Shown piece by piece: positions 1-37,497 of a DNA stretch of 38,194 bases (positions are counted from its first letter, which is position 1; the number at the start of each line of letters is the position of its first letter). The position numbers and the translations under genes are program-made. Source of the DNA: a virus (lineage: Duplodnaviria; Heunggongvirae; Uroviricota; Caudoviricetes); IMG/VR virus record IMGVR_UViG_2537562192_000020; one strand, written 5' to 3'. Under the pieces are notes generated by a model. That model was not told the origin of the DNA, made no database searches, and saw nothing but the letters and a program-made list of their open reading frames with translations.

Positions 1-1682
<1,682 letters not shown>

Positions 1683-1690
1683 CCACTACA

Positions 1691-2961
1691 AACACACATC
1701 AATGGTGGCACGCAAACCGTTCAGAATTATGGTAAGGCAATCAATACCGATATCGTCTCTGGCCTACAACAAATTATGGCAAACGGGACAGCGGAAGGTT
1801 CCATTATTAATGGGTGTTCACAGGTAGTTAATGAGGGCGGTCTGGCTGAAAACTCGGTGCTTAATGACGGCGGCACACTCGATGTGCGGGAGAAAGGCAG
1901 CGCAACGGGGATACAGCAGAGTAGCCAGGACGCTTTGGTTGCAACCACCAGGGCGACGCGGGTCACAGGAACACGCGCGGATGGCGTCGCGTTCAGCATC
2001 GAGCAGGGTGCGGCGAACAATATCCTGCTGGCAAATGGCGGCGTGTTAACCATGGAGTCAGACACCTCTTCTGACAAAACACAGGTCAATACGGGCGGAC
2101 GGGAGATCGTCAAAACAAAAGCCACTGCGACAGGCACGACGCTCACCGGCGGCGAACAAATCGTCGAGGGGGTGGCGAATGAGACAACGATTAACGACGG
2201 CGGAATACAAACAGTTTCAGCTAACGGAGAGGCAATAAAAACAAAGATCAATGAAGGCGGTACGCTGACAGTTAACGATAATGGCAAAGCGACAGATATC
2301 GTCCAGAACAGCGGTGCCGCTCTCCAGACGAGCACGGCTAACGGTATTGAAATCAGCGGTACTCACCAGTACGGCACTTTTTCCATTTCCGGCAATTTAG
2401 CGACCAATATGTTGCTGGAAAATGGCGGTAATTTATTGGTATTAGCAGGTACCGAAGCTCGCGACTCCACGGTTGGCAGCGGTGGAGCCGCCAACGGCAG
2501 TTATCGCAGCAACGGGCTGGGCGGTCACATTGAAACCGGGATGCGATTTACCGATGGTAACTGGAACCTGACGCCGTATGCATCGTTAACGGGGGTTCAC
2601 CGCTGATAACCCTGAATATCATTTATCCAATGGCATGGAATCGAAATCAGTCGATACCCGCAGTTTATATCGTGAACTGGGTGCAACGCTGAGTTACAAC
2701 ATGCGTCTGGGGAACGGTATGGAAGTTGAGCCGTGGCTGAAGGCGGCTGTGCGCAAAGAATTTATCGATGATAACCGGGTGAAAGTGAATAGTGACGGTA
2801 ATTTCGTCAATGATTTGTCGGGCAGACGTGGAATATACCAGGCAGGTATTAAAGCCTCATTCAGCAGTACGTTAAGCGGGCATCTTGGGGTGGGGTATAG
2901 CCATGGTGCCGGTGTGGAATCCCCGTGGAACGGGGTAGCTGGTGTGAACTGGTCGTTCTGA
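1691..2961 (+). pseudogene. autotransporter adhesin, C-terminal fragment (passenger repeats plus partial beta-barrel), frameshifted
   Basis: Passenger-like repeats in frame 3 (1691-2606), then a frame switch to frame 1 within GGGGG run 2591-2595; frame 1 continues to a beta-barrel C-terminus ending ...GVNWSF (terminal aromatic). Confidence 0.65.
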
Positions 2962-2973
2962 CCATCAACGAAA

Positions 2974-2996
2974 AAGCCCACATCTGTGGGCTTTCA
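2974..2996 (+). terminator. rho-independent terminator-like hairpin after autotransporter gene
   Basis: AAGCCCAC-atct-GTGGGCTT stem-loop followed by a short T-run. Confidence 0.45.
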
Positions 2997-3121
2997 TGTC
3001 ACCAGGAGCCGCGGCTCCTTTGCGTATCCTTTTATGTCTCTTCACCGTCTGGTCGGTGTCCTGCTGAGACTGCTAACTTCCTGTTTTTATTGGTGTTGTC
3101 CTTATACCGTCCAATCATGAT

Positions 3122-3166
3122 TGGTGGAGCTGGCGGGAGTTGAACCCGCGTCCGAAATTCCTACAT
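3122..3166. repeat. prophage attachment-site direct repeat (left copy), identical to the 3' terminal 45 nt of ssrA
   Basis: 45/45 identity with 37135-37179 (TGGTGGAGCTGGCGGGAGTTGAACCCGCGTCCGAAATTCCTACAT); sequences diverge immediately outside. Confidence 0.85.
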
Positions 3167-3251: not shown

Positions 3252-3920
3252 TTAACTTTCTGCCGCCAAAGTGCCGCCACTGCATTTGTCGCCTAAACGC
3301 CTATTTGAAACGATTAATCTCTCGGCGATCTTAATCTTGGAGAGCTTATCTAGGCAGATAAAGCATATTGCTACTCCCGATACCACAAAATAGCTGCTTA
3401 AACCAAAGTATTGCCAAGTAGTTAGATGGTTTATCTTCTCCATCATCTTAGCACTTACTACAACAGAATAACTGAAAGGAAGTGCTACGATGAGACTGCC
3501 CATGAAGTAAATTAGAGTTGTTATAATTTTTATTAATTTTCTATATATGCTGTATTTATATCTTTTTTTATTCCATGCGAATATTTCTTTATGGGTGGTA
3601 ATGGAAATTAGACTTTGACATTTGGAATAATCATCTATATCGCTAACGGGGTTTGTTGTGTTGAGTAATATTAATCTTTGTTTTTTTGTCAATGTGTTAT
3701 CTTTGGTTAATGCAGCAATGCCGTAATCTTCCGCCAGTTTTTTGAAGGTCGGATCTTCACTGCTTTTATACATCTGATATGAAAATTCGCTAATGTTTTT
3801 ACGTGATGTGAATAGTTTGTCTTTTTTATAAGTCCACCCTGTTTTAAGCCCTAATAAGGATATAATGGCAGATAGGGAAGGGAATAATATTTTTATAAGT
3901 AACTCTAGTTCGCTATTCAT
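3252..3920 (-). CDS. hypothetical membrane protein (AT-rich moron between int and attL)
   Basis: 222-aa ORF with about 3 predicted hydrophobic helices; strongly AT-rich relative to the phage backbone; GAGGT RBS before ATG at 3920; immediately downstream of int on the same strand. Confidence 0.55.
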   Translation of the reverse strand: MNSELELLIKILFPSLSAIISLLGLKTGWTYKKDKLFTSRKNISEFSYQMYKSSEDPTFKKLAEDYGIAALTKDNTLTKKQRLILLNTTNPVSDIDDYSKCQSLISITTHKEIFAWNKKRYKYSIYRKLIKIITTLIYFMGSLIVALPFSYSVVVSAKMMEKINHLTTWQYFGLSSYFVVSGVAICFICLDKLSKIKIAERLIVSNRRLGDKCSGGTLAAES

Positions 3921-3930
3921 AAATTACTAC

Positions 3931-4947
3931 TTACCTCAAATTAAATAAAGGATTTTTAGTTACGGCATCTTCTAAATGGTCTGGGGCGAAGTGTGCATAG
4001 ACCATGGTCATTTTTATATCTGAATGTCCTAGGATATCCCGCAAAACCAATATGTTTCCACCATTCATCATAAAATGGCTAGCGAATGTATGACGCAGAA
4101 CGTGAGTACATTGACCCTCTGGCAGATCGATACCAGCCCGCTTTACTGCACGCTCAAAGGCTTTTCTGCATGGGGTGAATAACTTCCCCCTATTCTTAGG
4201 CAGTTCTTCATATAAATCCTTAGAAATAGGCACAGTTCGGTTTTTCTTGCCTTTGGTCTTGGTATAAGTGATACGGTATTTTGATACCTGATGACTCTGC
4301 AGGTTTTCGGCTTCGCTCCAGCGTGCGCCGGTGGCCAGGCATATTTTTGCAATCAAAAGCAGGCTGGAGCTTTGAGAATCGGCGCAGGCATCCAGCAGAC
4401 GTTTAATTTCTTCCGGGGTCAGGAACGCCAATTCACTCTCAGCAATTTTAAATGTTGGCAGCCCAGCAAGCGGGTTGGGGGCTGACCAGTGGCCCAGCTT
4501 TTTCAGTGTACCAAAAACAGATGATAGATTGCGCTGTTCAAGGTTTACCGTGCGGGGCTTAACGGGCGACATAAACGTGCCATCTTCATTTCGTACTTCA
4601 CCTTTTAACCGTGCTTCGCGGTATTTCGTAAAGTCACCGGCTGTCAGTTCTGAAGCGATGGGATCGCCTAGACCATTACAGATAATTCTAAGTTTCGCTA
4701 TGAGGCGCTTGGGGTCTGCGAGTGTTTGACCATACAGGGAATACCACTGCTCAATTAATTCTGATAGGTGTCGCCGATCTTCCTTTTCCCCCAGCCATGG
4801 TTTTTTGTTCACTTCTTCCATTGTGAAGCTTTCAAAAGCAATGGCTTCGCCTTTCGTAGCAAATTGCTTACGCACGCGCTTGCCATTGCGTCCATTGGGA
4901 TAGCACTCGCACAACCATTTACCGTTTGGCTGTTTTCTGACAGTCAT
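3931..4947 (-). CDS. int: tyrosine integrase (P2/186 Int family)
   Basis: 338 aa; C-terminal R...HxLRHT...Y catalytic signature (VLRHTFASHF...MVYAH); adjacent to att repeat. Confidence 0.9.
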   Translation of the reverse strand: MTVRKQPNGKWLCECYPNGRNGKRVRKQFATKGEAIAFESFTMEEVNKKPWLGEKEDRRHLSELIEQWYSLYGQTLADPKRLIAKLRIICNGLGDPIASELTAGDFTKYREARLKGEVRNEDGTFMSPVKPRTVNLEQRNLSSVFGTLKKLGHWSAPNPLAGLPTFKIAESELAFLTPEEIKRLLDACADSQSSSLLLIAKICLATGARWSEAENLQSHQVSKYRITYTKTKGKKNRTVPISKDLYEELPKNRGKLFTPCRKAFERAVKRAGIDLPEGQCTHVLRHTFASHFMMNGGNILVLRDILGHSDIKMTMVYAHFAPDHLEDAVTKNPLFNLR

Positions 4948-4949
4948 GT

Positions 4950-5582
4950 TTAGATACTCTTTATTACTTTGACTGCACGCCCAATAACTTCCACATCATC
5001 AGCAGAGCACTCGAAAGACGCTTCATCTTGATTTACTACAATCTTATTGCCGGGAATCCGCATGATTTTTGCAATAATAATCATTCCATCAATATTGATA
5101 AGCCAGAATCCATTGCTGACTTGTTTAACTGATTTATCGATGAGATAACAATCAGTAGGGGTTTCTAAGAACATCGATTCTTCATAATCTGCAGGTAATA
5201 TGCTGTGGTCTAGGAAAATCTCTTCATCAATACTGAGTTGTCCATTTTCCAAGGTTCCTTTAGGAATAGATGGAGTTATGAGTTTGGATAACGGTTTAAT
5301 TGCTTGTTTGTTCTCGTTATGAGATCTTTTCTCAGGCTCGTATCCTTCTTTCATGCTTCCCTGTCCAGTGGCTAACCAAAGTAACGAAACACCGGTTTCT
5401 AGTGCACACTGAATTATCCAGTCAGCAGGAAAACTGTCACGTAACACTCTGTTTGCCATAGTACTTTTTGAGACATTCAGGTGCTCGCTTAATGCCTGCT
5501 TAGTTGTGAATCCATAAGCCTCAAGCAGCCTCTCAATAGCTGCCTTACCTCCCGTATCGGAACCCATTCTGATGTTTAACAT
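4950..5582 (-). CDS. cI: CI-type immunity repressor (186 CI-like)
   Basis: 210 aa with N-terminal HTH (LSEHLNVSKSTMANRV); positioned between int and divergent early operon as in phage 186. Confidence 0.7.
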   Translation of the reverse strand: MLNIRMGSDTGGKAAIERLLEAYGFTTKQALSEHLNVSKSTMANRVLRDSFPADWIIQCALETGVSLLWLATGQGSMKEGYEPEKRSHNENKQAIKPLSKLITPSIPKGTLENGQLSIDEEIFLDHSILPADYEESMFLETPTDCYLIDKSVKQVSNGFWLINIDGMIIIAKIMRIPGNKIVVNQDEASFECSADDVEVIGRAVKVIKSI

Positions 5583-11437: not shown

Positions 11438-11453
11438 CTGTAATTATAAACAG
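11438..11453 (+). promoter_or_regulatory. LexA (SOS) box overlapping promoter of DinI/Tum-like operon
   Basis: CTGTAATTATAAACAG = exact CTGT-N8-ACAG; TTTACA -35-like hexamer at 11413-11418 upstream. Confidence 0.7.
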
Positions 11454-11496: not shown

Positions 11497-11685
11497 ATGC
11501 AGGACTATTTTTTGGAGTCTTTGAAGCTCCAGCGCATTGATTTTTTTCTTAAGCTTGTAGCGGCCAGTGAGTGTAGTGATGAAGAGAAGGGACTGGCTCT
11601 GCAGTGGGTTTCTGAATTGACTGATGAACTCATGGCAAAAATCAGAAGCCACGAATACAACCGCTCAATGGATGTCATCAGCTGA
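11497..11685 (+). CDS. small SOS-controlled protein (first gene of Tum-like operon)
   Basis: 62 aa; GGAGGAAAG RBS; directly downstream of LexA box. Confidence 0.5.
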   Translation: MQDYFLESLKLQRIDFFLKLVAASECSDEEKGLALQWVSELTDELMAKIRSHEYNRSMDVIS

Positions 11686-11695
11686 GGTGACTTTT

Positions 11696-11929
11696 ATGCG
11701 CATTGAAATAATGATCGATAAAGAGCAGAAGATTAGCCAGTCTACCCTGGACGCCCTTGAATCCGAGCTTTACCGTAATCTGCGCCCCCTGTATCCCAAA
11801 ACGGTAATTCGTATCCGCAAAGGTAGCTCTAACGGTGTGGAACTGACCGGACTGCAACTGGACGAAGAAAGGAAGCAAGTGATGAAAATTATGCAGAAGG
11901 TGTGGGAAGACGACAGCTGGCTGCATTAA
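11696..11929 (+). CDS. DinI-family protein (186 Tum-like antirepressor module)
   Basis: MRIEIMIDK...KIMQKVWEDDSWLH resembles E. coli DinI; GAGGTGA RBS. Confidence 0.7.
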   Translation: MRIEIMIDKEQKISQSTLDALESELYRNLRPLYPKTVIRIRKGSSNGVELTGLQLDEERKQVMKIMQKVWEDDSWLH

Positions 11930-12292: not shown

Positions 12293-13102
12293 ATGAGTAC
12301 TAACAGCGAACGTATGTCCAATGCGCCCGTTTACTATGCATTGGTACAGGTAAAGTTTACTCCAATAGCTGCAATGAGTAAGTATGTTCCAGACATACAA
12401 GATGCGCTAAGAGTTGAGGGATTTCCTTTATTTGAGGTTTCCAATACAACTCAGTTGAAATTTGAAATAAAAAACCCCAATGAGCCACCGGTACATTCAT
12501 TTGAGCCTGTGACAAGTTGGTTGATGATTGATGCAGATAGAAGATCTGGTTTTGTTTTAGGCAACGATTTCATTACGTTCCATACAACATATTATGATAA
12601 CCATGTATCTTTCATCTCGTCATTGATACTTGGTCTGAGCAAAGTTCTAGAATTTGCTAAGCCATCGCTGTTAAGTCGGATTGGGCTTCGATATTTGGAT
12701 GCTGTGTTTCCTGAGAAAAGCGAAACAATTGAGCAGTATCTTGTAAAGGAACTTCATGGTGTTGATTTCGGATGGACGCCAATACAGTCTATACAAGAGT
12801 CCGTATATCAGACATGTGTTGAGCCATTGATCCCTAATGGATTTATGGTTTCACGAATACATAAGATGAATGGTCAGCTAGGTTTTCCGCCAGATATGAT
12901 TCCTAATGGTTTACTGCCGTTGCCGAGATTTAGTAACACAGAGCATCGTATGCACGCAATAATTGATACAGATCATTATGTTGAAGGCAACATGTCAACT
13001 GATTTGCAGTTAATTGAAAAACAGATTCTTTCGTTGCATAGTAAAGTTAAAGAAGCATTTGAAGGCATGGTTTCAGATTTTGCCCGTACTAAATGGCACT
13101 GA
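12293..13102 (+). CDS. hypothetical protein, cargo gene 1 of cos-proximal cassette
   Basis: 269 aa; AGGAGGG RBS; AT-rich; contains RIGLRYLD segment; no similarity to P2/186 core proteins recognised. Confidence 0.7.
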   Translation: MSTNSERMSNAPVYYALVQVKFTPIAAMSKYVPDIQDALRVEGFPLFEVSNTTQLKFEIKNPNEPPVHSFEPVTSWLMIDADRRSGFVLGNDFITFHTTYYDNHVSFISSLILGLSKVLEFAKPSLLSRIGLRYLDAVFPEKSETIEQYLVKELHGVDFGWTPIQSIQESVYQTCVEPLIPNGFMVSRIHKMNGQLGFPPDMIPNGLLPLPRFSNTEHRMHAIIDTDHYVEGNMSTDLQLIEKQILSLHSKVKEAFEGMVSDFARTKWH

Positions 13103-13121
13103 AACAACGGAGGTGACTAAA

Positions 13122-13784
13122 ATGTATGCAATTCCCACCGGAAGCATAGGCTCTGTAGATCGATATTCTCCAAATTTGCAGTCAAGCTCATGTGTATCAG
13201 GTGTTGTTGCTGTCGCCGCATCTTTACTATTAGTTGGTACGGGGGCTTCATACCCTGTAAATGCTTATAAGCAATGGCGTCAGTATGTTCAGCCAAGGGT
13301 TCAGTTTGCATTTGATTCCATAGAATCAACGTACACGCCTGCAATTTCTCCTGAGGTTGATGTCAGGAATGTTGCCCAACATTTAGCTAATATTCGAGAA
13401 GTGCTGTCTCCATCAATGTCAGAACTGGCAAAGGATTTGGGGATAACTCGGCAGGCTCTCTATAAATGGTTGTCAGGGGAGAACCAGCCTGATGATGCTT
13501 CAAAAGTGCAATTCATTACCAACCTTAGTAATGTCGCTGACTCTTTTTCCAAAGCTGGACTCCATGATGCGAAGCTATTGGTGAAAATGAAAGCATTTAA
13601 TGGTAAGTCATTAATGGACGTAGTAAAAGAAGGTGAGGATTGGAATAGGGCAGTTCAGGTATTGATTGATGAAGCTAAAGCGATGAATGCTGCTGCTGAA
13701 TCGGCCAATTACTTAGCAAGCAAGGCGAAACCGACAGATGATTGGAAGTCATCTATTTCAATTCCTGGAACGGTAGAGGAATAA
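13122..13784 (+). CDS. hypothetical HTH (XRE-type) protein with N-terminal hydrophobic segment, cargo gene 2
   Basis: GGAGGTGA RBS 9 nt before ATG 13122; hydrophobic stretch VSGVVAVAASLLLVGTGA; HTH SMSELAKDLGITRQALYKWL. Confidence 0.6.
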   Translation: MYAIPTGSIGSVDRYSPNLQSSSCVSGVVAVAASLLLVGTGASYPVNAYKQWRQYVQPRVQFAFDSIESTYTPAISPEVDVRNVAQHLANIREVLSPSMSELAKDLGITRQALYKWLSGENQPDDASKVQFITNLSNVADSFSKAGLHDAKLLVKMKAFNGKSLMDVVKEGEDWNRAVQVLIDEAKAMNAAAESANYLASKAKPTDDWKSSISIPGTVEE

Positions 13785-13793
13785 ATCACATTT

Positions 13794-14642
13794 ATGTTGG
13801 TACGAGGAACATCATGGCGTCAGGGGCATGTACTTAAACATGATGATGCCGTTTCACTTGGAATTCTGCAGCCTGATGAAACGAACCATAAAGTTGTAGT
13901 TATAACGCATGATTGTGATTTACAGAGTAATTCAGAAAAAAACGTGGAACTGATGTTTGGCCCCTTGAAAAAGGGGTCAAGCAGGATGAAAAGAGCTAAG
14001 CATCCGAGAATACTCGATCTATGTTTTGAAAACCCAGAAAGTGCGAAGAAGAATGCAGTAGAGCTCCGGCATGAAAGGAAAGTCATCATTCCTAAAGAAG
14101 CTTTCTGTTGTGAGGAAAACGATCCAGCATTCTCCATTAGCACAGAAGAGAAACAAGCTCTTAAGCAATGGTTAGCTGCTAAGTATGGTCGTCCAGCGTT
14201 TCCTAACTCGTTTGAAGAGCGCTTGCGGGCTTACGACGAGGATAAAAAGTTTATTTTCGAAAAAGAAGTTGCGGATATTATCGCCACAAACGCAGAGCAT
14301 TTGATCGGAGTTTTTTTCGATTTGGGCGAAGAAAGATTTAACGATCTTGAGGAAGGCATACCATATGAGCTTTCTATCAATGTTGTTTATGATGCAACTG
14401 AAGGTGGCCCCGATGCCAGAAGAGCGGCTGAACAAACATGTTCTGATCTAAAGGCTTTGTTTTATAAGTTTTATGGTGATCCAACCTTGGGGCATTCAGA
14501 ACTTATAGAATTGAATACGTGCATAGCTGTTGCTGATACTCATTTCTCCCTGTATGCATTGAGGCGGATGGATCAATGGAGGGTAGAATACATCAGCCTT
14601 GAAGAAGATTCATATGGCGATTTCATTGGTGCCGGTGTTTAA
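13794..14642 (+). CDS. hypothetical acidic protein, cargo gene 3
   Basis: 282-aa ORF 9 bp after gene 2; no recognisable motif. Confidence 0.55.
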   Translation: MLVRGTSWRQGHVLKHDDAVSLGILQPDETNHKVVVITHDCDLQSNSEKNVELMFGPLKKGSSRMKRAKHPRILDLCFENPESAKKNAVELRHERKVIIPKEAFCCEENDPAFSISTEEKQALKQWLAAKYGRPAFPNSFEERLRAYDEDKKFIFEKEVADIIATNAEHLIGVFFDLGEERFNDLEEGIPYELSINVVYDATEGGPDARRAAEQTCSDLKALFYKFYGDPTLGHSELIELNTCIAVADTHFSLYALRRMDQWRVEYISLEEDSYGDFIGAGV

Positions 14643-36509: not shown

Positions 36510-36530
36510 AACCTGCTACGGCAGGTTTTT
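36510..36530. terminator. bidirectional terminator-like hairpin between ogr and convergent cargo gene
   Basis: AACCTGC-tacg-GCAGGTT followed by TTTTT. Confidence 0.5.
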
Positions 36531-37011
36531 ATTCATCTGGGATCTCACCCGTTTCAAGAAAATGTATAAAGCCAGGCTCATCTATGATGATTGTGCCTTT
36601 CATCCGGGCTGCCGATACTTTTGATGGGCCTGCATTGTAACCGCAACAGAGCATCTGAAGGCTTTGGGTTACAGAGGTTCTTACCGTTAATCCTTGTTCA
36701 TTCGCCTTATCAACCAATCTTTCTTTATCTGCTTTCTTAAATCCGGTGAAACATACATCGAATGTATTTTTTTTCGGACCAGACTGCTTGGTGAGATGTG
36801 AGTAGTTTTCGGGGAGGAATGACGCGCACTCCTGAATGGCTTGTTCTGGTGAATCGTACTGTTTAAGAATGCGGTCTTTTCGGAAGGTTTTTATTCGATC
36901 GGTGTTCTTACAAATGCCCTGTATATGATTTTCGCTATAACTGATGCTCTGTATAGAGTGAACACCGATACGACCATTTGCATTGATGTAAACAAAGTGA
37001 AGTTCTTCCAT
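36529..37011 (-). CDS. hypothetical protein with WYL-like N-terminal and BRCT-like C-terminal domains (cargo next to attR)
   Basis: N-terminus ...HIQGICKNTDRIKTFRKDRI resembles the WYL core; C-terminus FDVCFTGF...GLTVRTSVTQSLQMLCCGYNAGPSKVSAARMKGTIIIDEPGF resembles LigA-type BRCT; AGAGG RBS. Confidence 0.6.
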   Translation of the reverse strand: MEELHFVYINANGRIGVHSIQSISYSENHIQGICKNTDRIKTFRKDRILKQYDSPEQAIQECASFLPENYSHLTKQSGPKKNTFDVCFTGFKKADKERLVDKANEQGLTVRTSVTQSLQMLCCGYNAGPSKVSAARMKGTIIIDEPGFIHFLETGEIPDE

Positions 37012-37092
37012 GTGAAACCTCTTTGCATGATTTCAAGATGGCGACAGGCAAGATGGACGCAAAAGTCTGTCGCCATTTTGCCGCCACTACCA

Positions 37093-37124: not shown

Positions 37125-37134
37125 TTGATTTATT

Positions 37135-37179
37135 TGGTGGAGCTGGCGGGAGTTGAACCCGCGTCCGAAATTCCTACAT
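37135..37179. repeat. prophage attachment-site direct repeat (right copy) = 3' end of intact ssrA
   Basis: Identical to 3122-3166. Confidence 0.85.
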
Positions 37180-37497
37180 CCTCGGTACTACATGCTTAGT
37201 CAGTCTTTACATTCGCTTGCCAGCTGCGGACGGACACGCCACTAACAAACTAGCCTGATTAAGTTTTAACGCTTCAACCCCAGGCAGGGCTTCCACGCGA
37301 TCTCTTTTGGGTTTGACCTCTCTTGATCCCCGTCCTAAGAGCGGAGGCTAGGGAGAGAGGGCTCTAAGCAGGTTATTAAGCTGCTAAAGCGTAGTTTTCG
37401 TCGTTTGCGACTATTTTTTGCGGCTTTTTACGAGGCCAACCGCCCCTCGGCATGCACCTTGGGTTTCGCAAATCCCGTCGAATCCAGAATCAGCCCC
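37135..37497 (-). ncRNA. ssrA: tmRNA (SsrA), 363 nt
   Basis: Reverse complement begins GGGGCUGAUUCUGGAUUCGAC and ends ...GUUCAACUCCCGCCAGCUCCACCA, matching my memory of E. coli tmRNA. Confidence 0.95.

Follow-up and report, generated by a model that had tools for sequence, protein, structure and literature searches.

A prophage gene pairing a WYL domain with a BRCT domain and its linkage to phage repressors

WYL domains are currently viewed as ssDNA-sensing switches on HTH transcription factors. What role might be played by a small protein in which a WYL domain is joined to a BRCT domain, and whose gene lies at one end of a prophage? This question is raised by a 160-aa ORF in IMG/VR record IMGVR_UViG_2537562192_000020 (Caudoviricetes), a stretch of 38,194 nucleotides that is hereafter called the window. 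The original prediction, made from the sequence of the window, described the protein as WYL-like in its N-terminal half and BRCT-like in its C-terminal half, and suggested that it may be a stand-alone sensor, an effector component, or an anti-defence factor. The combination of the two domains was already included among the WYL architectures listed in 2014 (PMC4012209), and we found no experimental study of WYL-BRCT proteins in the literature.

The gene and its place in the prophage

The gene is located on the minus strand near the right end of the window and is surrounded by the following features, which are given together with the partner attachment site near the left end.

3121-3166: attL, partner of attR; 46-bp exact direct repeat of the 3′ end of ssrA
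36284/36239-36502, plus strand: ogr, convergent with the WYL-BRCT gene
36510-36527, no strand assigned: bidirectional terminator hairpin between ogr and the WYL-BRCT gene (terminator scan; T-runs on both strands)
36529-37011, minus strand: WYL-BRCT gene, 160 aa plus stop codon (ORF list; ATG start)
37018-37023, minus strand: ribosome-binding site AAGAGG, 6 nt 5′ of the ATG of the WYL-BRCT gene (read directly from the sequence)
37068-37086, minus strand: two TGGCGGCA/TGGCGACA repeats between the ssrA terminator and the WYL-BRCT gene (conserved with the attP of phage MLG42)
37099-37126, minus strand: phage-supplied ssrA terminator, directly upstream of the WYL-BRCT gene (terminator scan; 12-bp stem)
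37134-37179, no strand assigned: attR core, the 3′ end of ssrA (46-bp exact direct repeat; tmRNA prediction)
37135-37497, same strand as the WYL-BRCT gene: ssrA (tmRNA; ARAGORN), with smpB beyond

As originally described, the minus-strand ORF has its own ribosome-binding site and converges with ogr across a terminator hairpin, which is abutted by the TAA stop codon. The ORF is a genuine gene, far beyond what chance would produce. Its product matches PHROG 2561 over its full length (E = 2e-77), and a word-indexed search with the protein returned 122 homologs with E-values down to 1e-102. An exhaustive profile search found 2720 related representative clusters, 896 of them at E <= 1e-10; the resulting family size of ~2,700 is a count of clusters at 50% identity. 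Comparison with the 73%-identical ortholog from Yersinia phage MLG42 yields a pS of 0.90, where synonymous sites are saturated, and a pN of 0.18, which indicates that the gene is under strong purifying selection. Intact copies are present in 171-177 of 5426 complete E. coli genomes. The GC content of the gene is 41.8%, versus 51.3% across the window.

Because the att repeat encloses the gene, it resides inside a P2/186/Fels-2-like prophage, where 123 bp separate it from the attR core. Identical E. coli loci are annotated in RefSeq in a manner consistent with this placement. In the integrated state, the gene is directly downstream of ssrA and of the terminator that the phage supplies, a strong terminator that is conserved in the attP of Yersinia phage MLG42. 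The TGGCGGCA/TGGCGACA motif found beyond this terminator also occurs twice at 3261-3279 (minus strand), beside attL, and these repeats probably represent integrase arm-type sites of attP. A promoter search of the minus strand between the ssrA terminator and the ATG revealed no sigma-70-like promoter, and the last ~50 bp before the ATG differ from those of phage MLG42. Since no sigma-70 promoter is recognisable there, expression of the gene in the integrated prophage is uncertain. Outside the prophage, to the left of attL (1-3120), are adhesin-like autotransporter remnants (ypjA/ehaD, AIDA-repeat) with an IS3-family element inside, as annotated by RefSeq for the identical locus of E. coli 2012EL-2448.

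Domain composition of the WYL-BRCT protein

The structural reading of the protein as a WYL domain followed by a LigA-like BRCT domain, with no HTH, is right. The two domains are encoded as follows.

36784-37011, minus strand: WYL domain, residues 1-76, a five-stranded Sm-like barrel (strands 3-52) plus two helices
36532-36762, minus strand: single BRCT domain of the RFC1/LigA class, residues 84-160, with pocket residues T89, G90, K96, and K131

In the AF2 model of the protein (mean pLDDT 92.3), the N-terminal domain adopts the Sm/SH3-like five-stranded beta-barrel fold of WYL (Pfam PF13280), and its key residues are Y8, T42, F43, R44, D46, and R47. The query itself has no match to the Pfam WYL model at E <= 10, whereas the corresponding regions of the full-length homologs P0097 (25.4 bits) and P0100 (23.1 bits) exceed the gathering score of 21.8, as do several longer, fused relatives. 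The N-terminal profile of the family matches the WYL domain of PafC at E = 1.2e-6 and PafBC at 2.4e-5. Thus, the N-terminal half is WYL-like as first proposed, with a membership that rests on transitive and profile evidence because the query is not matched directly.

Residues R44 and R47, within the segment KTFRKDRI, fall on R201 and R204 of PafC in the profile alignment, and the equivalent pair in PafB is R211/R214. Both arginines are invariant in one family alignment (A6), and R44 is kept in at least 90% of a second (A2). Mutation of the R201/R204 pair of PafC abolishes ssDNA binding by PafBC (PMC11804915). Canonical WYL regulators differ in carrying the W-Y-L tripeptide, in place of which the query has N28-H29-I30 and many relatives have x-Y-[IL]. 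This motif is only loosely conserved among WYL domains. The arginines that flank the CapW motif RWHVR (PMC11662680) also are absent from the WYL-BRCT protein. In the enterobacterial clade, H18 replaces the Arg of most distant relatives and H29 the Tyr of the motif, such that a reduced affinity for ssDNA or a different ligand is possible. As judged from the residues that are retained, the ligand of this WYL domain is probably nucleic acid.

A flexible linker leads to the C-terminal domain, which has the alpha/beta fold of BRCT. The query scores 19.5 bits against Pfam BRCT (PF00533; E = 1.1e-3), where the gathering score is 21.3, whereas 41 of 47 diverse family members match this model at E <= 0.1 (best 2e-6) and many relatives lie above the threshold. 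Searches with the Pfam WYL and BRCT models, which had been proposed as a check on the two assignments, therefore stay below the curated thresholds for the query (with no WYL match at all) and exceed them for several (WYL) or many (BRCT) of its relatives. The family profile matches RFC1 (yeast and human) and LigA at their BRCT domains, with E-values of 3e-5 to 4e-4, in agreement with the earlier view that the C-terminal half follows the BRCT pattern of NAD-dependent ligase. A fold search of BFVD returned matches to ligase BRCTs and to similarly mis-named small proteins alone.

A cryo-EM study of yeast RFC found that Rfc1 residues Thr166, Gly167, Arg174, and Lys209 bind the 5′-phosphate of DNA (PMC9359705). 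In HMM alignments, these residues correspond to T89, G90, K96, and K131 of the WYL-BRCT protein. T89, G90, and K131 are invariant in a 47-sequence family alignment, and K96 is at least 90% conserved. As in Rfc1, this Thr-Gly/Lys/Lys pocket would bind a DNA 5′-phosphate at single-strand/double-strand junctions. The protein carries 20 Lys and Arg residues against 20 Asp and Glu residues, and hence no net positive charge. BRCT domains had been introduced in the original prediction as binders of phosphopeptides or DNA ends; the domain at hand belongs to the DNA 5′-phosphate subclass of RFC1 and LigA, not to the tandem type that binds phosphopeptides. The BRCTs of RFC1 and LigA, which share this subclass with PARP1, are its best sequence and profile relatives and have in common with it a single BRCT, the TG pair, and two basic residues. 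They differ in being parts of a clamp-loader or ligase core, whereas the BRCT examined here is paired with a WYL domain and its DNA binding is putative.

The resemblance to LigA explains how the protein could be taken for a truncated NAD-dependent DNA ligase, as it is annotated in PHROG 2561, in several phage records, and by some metagenome pipelines. This idea draws on annotations that read "DNA ligase" or "NAD-dependent DNA ligase" and on weak matches to LigA models, and it is almost certainly wrong. The matches cover only positions 549-652 of the 652 in the LigA model, and TIGR00575, matched at positions 549-650, gives a score of 19.6 bits where the cutoff is 444. At 160 residues, the protein lacks the adenylation (KxDG), OB, Zn finger, and HhH domains, and a WYL barrel makes up its N-terminal half. 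The "DNA ligase" label of PHROG 2561 is incorrect, because the match, confined to the final ~100 positions of the LigA models, comes from the BRCT domain alone and the catalytic domains are absent.

Searches with Pfam and NCBIfam models found no HTH in the protein, and neither a winged HTH nor a WCX domain is present. With the WYL barrel starting at residue 3, and two helices and the BRCT domain after it, the protein bears out the predicted lack of an HTH. Without HTH and WCX domains, the protein cannot be a transcription factor of the wHTH-WYL-WCX type. In this respect it is distinct from PafBC, DriD, CapW, and BrxR, which carry both, whereas its output domain is a BRCT. It also differs from these regulators in being phage-encoded within a lysogeny operon rather than located beside a defence system.

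The protein has no match to any validated defence system in PADLOC-DB v2.0.0, and no PADLOC defence match was obtained for neighboring genes. A PADLOC candidate, PDC-S48, is matched at the level of the BRCT domain (E = 1.8e-7 over 72 residues), and a weak match to an SspE fragment also was observed (1.3e-3). PDC-S48 resembles the WYL-BRCT protein in its C-terminal BRCT, and the same match is seen among relatives fused to transmembrane (TM) segments. The likeness is limited to this domain, however, as PDC-S48 has 411 aa, a different N-terminal part, and the status of a candidate only.

Architectures vary within the family. Among 138 representatives with a complete WYL-BRCT module, 76 are stand-alone and 39 (~28%) have an N-terminal extension with predicted TM helices; N-terminal extensions lacking TM helices (5), C-terminal extensions (16), and extensions at both ends (2) make up the others. 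The stand-alone form lacks an effector domain, a catalytic domain, and a membrane component, and some relatives carry extra BRCT repeats. A further domain of ~220 aa with WTQGH and SQVEFV motifs, here called domain X, is fused at the C terminus in P0158, P0176, P0178, and P0187 and at the N terminus in P0122. Sequence searches of Pfam, PADLOC, and PDB gave no match to domain X, and no gene for it occurs in the window or in the loci examined.

Linkage to phage repressor genes

At the left end of the prophage, the attL site is followed by three genes.

3252-3920, minus strand: orf222 (222 aa), between attL and int; 34.5% GC, about three predicted TM segments
3931-4947, minus strand: integrase (ORF list; annotation)
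4950-5582, minus strand: 186-type CI repressor (Pfam Phage_CI_repr plus Phage_CI_C; annotation)

In the circular phage, the order on the minus strand is CI, int, orf222, attP, the WYL-BRCT gene, and the terminator. The circular Yersinia phage MLG42 has cI, int, a 287-bp attP gap, and a WYL-BRCT homolog, all on one strand. As this arrangement shows, the WYL-BRCT gene is the distal member of a leftward CI-int unit that extends across attP in the circular phage. The gene comes to lie at a prophage end because integration opens this unit, which puts 32 kb between it and CI. The end position that the original prediction noted is not special in itself: it is a product of integration, as is evident from circular MLG42, and in other phages a homolog directly follows the repressor.

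In 11 of 12 contexts, the homolog is within or directly downstream of the repressor unit. The following gene orders were observed, each on the same strand.

Mannheimia PHL101: CI, WYL-BRCT homolog
Vibrio PV94: CI, WYL-BRCT homolog, 123-aa ORF, int
Xenorhabdus: CI, WYL-BRCT homolog, int
Serratia: HTH, Flk_N-like, WYL-BRCT homolog, int
Burkholderia: XRE, 250-aa ORF, WYL-BRCT homolog
L012 (lambdoid-like): HTH_3+S24 CI (divergent from cro), TM-fused WYL-BRCT homolog
L014: Mu-type HTH+S24 repressor, TM-fused WYL-BRCT homolog
L016: short HTH_3, TM-fused WYL-BRCT homolog
L017: S24 repressor, double-BRCT form
L013: HTH, 268-aa ORF, domain-X-fused form, int

The gap between repressor and homolog is just 4-35 bp in PHL101, Xenorhabdus, and L016, and TM-fused forms occupy the same post-repressor slot (L012, L014, and L016). 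The sole context of the 12 that lacks an adjacent repressor is a Pseudothioglobus integrative island, in which the homolog is convergent with an Mrr-type nuclease gene. The repressor partners of the family include 186-type CI, HTH_3+S24, Mu-type HTH+S24, and short HTH_3/XRE proteins. That these amount to at least four unrelated architectures speaks for co-expression and against a specific repressor partner of the WYL-BRCT protein. The gene was found in 177 of 5426 E. coli genomes, compared with ~1900 that match the adjacent P2-type D-gene end, which marks it as accessory within the phage lysogeny module.

Other genes share this region. In the lambdoid-like contig, a Gp49/HI1420 (HigBA-like) toxin-antitoxin pair follows the TM-fused gene as further lysogen-expressed cargo of this slot (L012:4493-5151). 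In three P2-like prophages, a protein of 212-268 aa is encoded between the repressor and the WYL-BRCT gene (L003:2715-3464, L010:5317-5955, and L013:5169-5975). These proteins, from Burkholderia, Serratia, and L013, have an N-terminal [IV]AGxD[VF] motif, a C-terminal TM segment, and 20-22% identity, and two of the three have a CEYxG...WQP tail in common. On the basis of similarity that is confined to such motifs, they may be a membrane partner of WYL-BRCT proteins. We also considered orf222 as an obligate partner and rejected it, as complete E. coli genomes with orf222 number only 29, versus 177 with the WYL-BRCT gene, and Yersinia phage MLG42 lacks it. orf222 belongs to no significant Pfam or PADLOC family (a 1TM-TIR match at E = 0.007 is non-significant) and looks like a separate lysogeny-side cargo gene.

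Possible functions of WYL-BRCT proteins

Both domains keep the residues with which their relatives bind DNA, and the protein would on this basis be a two-headed reader of nucleic acids that has no catalytic domain. Our main reading, which we hold at a probability of roughly 40%, is that it is made in the lysogen, reads ssDNA plus 5′-phosphate structures (ends, nicks, and gaps), and serves superinfection exclusion or defence. In the circular phage, the repressor/int transcript would yield the protein, and in the integrated prophage it might come from ssrA read-through or from a weak promoter of the gene itself. On foreign DNA that is entering the cell or being replicated, it would recognise ssDNA and 5′-phosphates at ends (cohesive or resected), at nicks, and at gaps. 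The stand-alone form might act by occupying the DNA structure, for example by blocking end sealing or processing, and the TM-fused relatives might act at, or through, the membrane. In favor of this reading are, besides the retained residues and the repressor linkage, the purifying selection on the gene, its accessory distribution and low GC content, the membrane-tethered relatives, the BRCT-level match to PDC-S48, and the Mrr-type neighbor in the Pseudothioglobus island. Counting against it are the missing match to a validated defence system, the lack of an effector domain in the stand-alone form, the absence of a recognisable promoter, the lack of net positive charge, and the two His positions of the WYL ligand site.

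Co-transcription with the repressor favors a function in the lysogen, be it exclusion, defence, or the tuning of lysogeny. In this placement, the gene resembles lambda rexAB and BstA, which are located with or just downstream of the immunity repressor; genes in this position are transcribed with the repressor and thus are expressed in the lysogen. The relatives that pair DNA-directed and membrane parts recall, by analogy, the RexA sensor and the RexB membrane protein. However, neither rexAB nor BstA has sequence or fold kinship with WYL-BRCT proteins, and phage protection by the latter is putative. A broader form of the exclusion proposal, which we consider doubtful, holds that WYL-BRCT proteins represent a widespread, unrecognised class of repressor-linked prophage immunity, in which a two-headed reader would capture the ends, nicks, and gaps of foreign DNA. 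Stand-alone forms would then block the sealing or processing of ends, which would leave the resident prophage unharmed because it excises as a circle, and membrane-anchored forms would work where DNA enters the cell or set off membrane-based abortive infection.

A regulatory role would fit the location behind the repressor just as well. The protein could be a DNA-damage sensor that tunes the choice between lysis and lysogeny, wherein the WYL domain senses ssDNA that arises from damage and the BRCT domain relays this signal to the repressor or to host factors, with effects on induction or on how lysogeny is established. The characterised ssDNA-binding WYL proteins (PafBC, DriD, and CapW) are all DNA-damage sensors, and the repressor linkage is tight in those contexts where only 4-35 bp intervene. 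Cassettes of cI and BRCT genes were likewise assumed to be damage-sensing regulatory modules in a 2026 preprint on Roseobacter prophages, from genomics alone (PMC13345283). The prophage in the window already has the canonical 186/Fels-2 device, however, which consists of a LexA box, a DinI/Tum-like ORF, and the 186-type CI. A search for LexA boxes found a perfect one (CTGTAATTATAAACAG) at 11438-11453 (plus strand), upstream of a small ORF and of a DinI-family ORF (gene region 11624-11929, plus strand; Pfam DinI E = 1.2e-22), and none near the WYL-BRCT ORF. An S24 autocleavage domain is present in many of the partner repressors, and these need no extra sensor. This device, the diversity of repressor architectures, the accessory distribution of the gene among close P2-like relatives, and the common membrane-tethered variants weaken the case for a damage sensor, as does the 32-kb separation from CI upon integration, and we judge it unlikely.

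The arrangement of the LexA box and the DinI-family ORF resembles the LexA-controlled Tum antirepressor of phage 186. Between the DinI/Tum-like gene and the late genes lie three cargo ORFs (12293-14642, plus strand) of 269 aa (no Pfam match), 256 aa (HTH_3), and 282 aa (no Pfam match). As these ORFs occupy the P2 tin/old-type variable hotspot, they may represent a candidate module for defence or addiction.

Another proposal begins with the kinship of the C-terminal domain to the BRCTs of LigA and RFC1, its closest sequence relatives, and with the conserved phosphate pocket. The protein might mimic the LigA BRCT and recruit, or compete with, host ligase or repair factors at 5′-phosphate ends of phage or host DNA, as an accessory that helps genome circularisation, the establishment of lysogeny, or the damage tolerance of the host. 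The cohesive ends of P2-like and lambdoid phages do need to be sealed by host LigA. Nevertheless, incoming phage DNA has already become circular by the time the first phage gene is expressed, most P2-like prophages lack the WYL-BRCT gene, and a soluble repair cofactor is difficult to square with the TM-fused variants, which makes this role quite improbable. Still less credible is an anti-defence factor that masks the DNA ends or ssDNA of the phage from RecBCD or from ssDNA-sensing regulators such as CapW and BrxR, although the potential to bind DNA ends and ssDNA could serve this end and the soaking up of ssDNA could blunt host defences under WYL control. Among the functions suggested originally (sensor, effector component, and anti-defence), this last is the least likely, because such factors are normally expressed early in lytic growth, whereas all phage contexts examined place the WYL-BRCT gene with repressor and integrase transcription rather than with an early lytic promoter. 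The existence of membrane-tethered forms also speaks against it.

WYL-BRCT proteins constitute a large and coherent family that public databases label "DNA ligase" or "hypothetical", although the analysis yet shows no surprising mechanism. As read from their sequences, they would place a WYL sensor on a BRCT of the DNA-end-binding class, with no domain that reads DNA sequence. Their genes reside in the immunity operons of many unrelated temperate phages, including P2-like, lambdoid, and Mu-like phages, and targets for mutation are already defined in R44, R47, T89, K96, and K131. As a damage sensor, should it prove to be one, the protein would feed into lysogeny independently of SOS. If it instead serves exclusion or defence, the known mechanisms would be joined by a non-enzymatic one that relies on the recognition of DNA structure, and a recurrent slot in the immunity regions of prophages would be explained.
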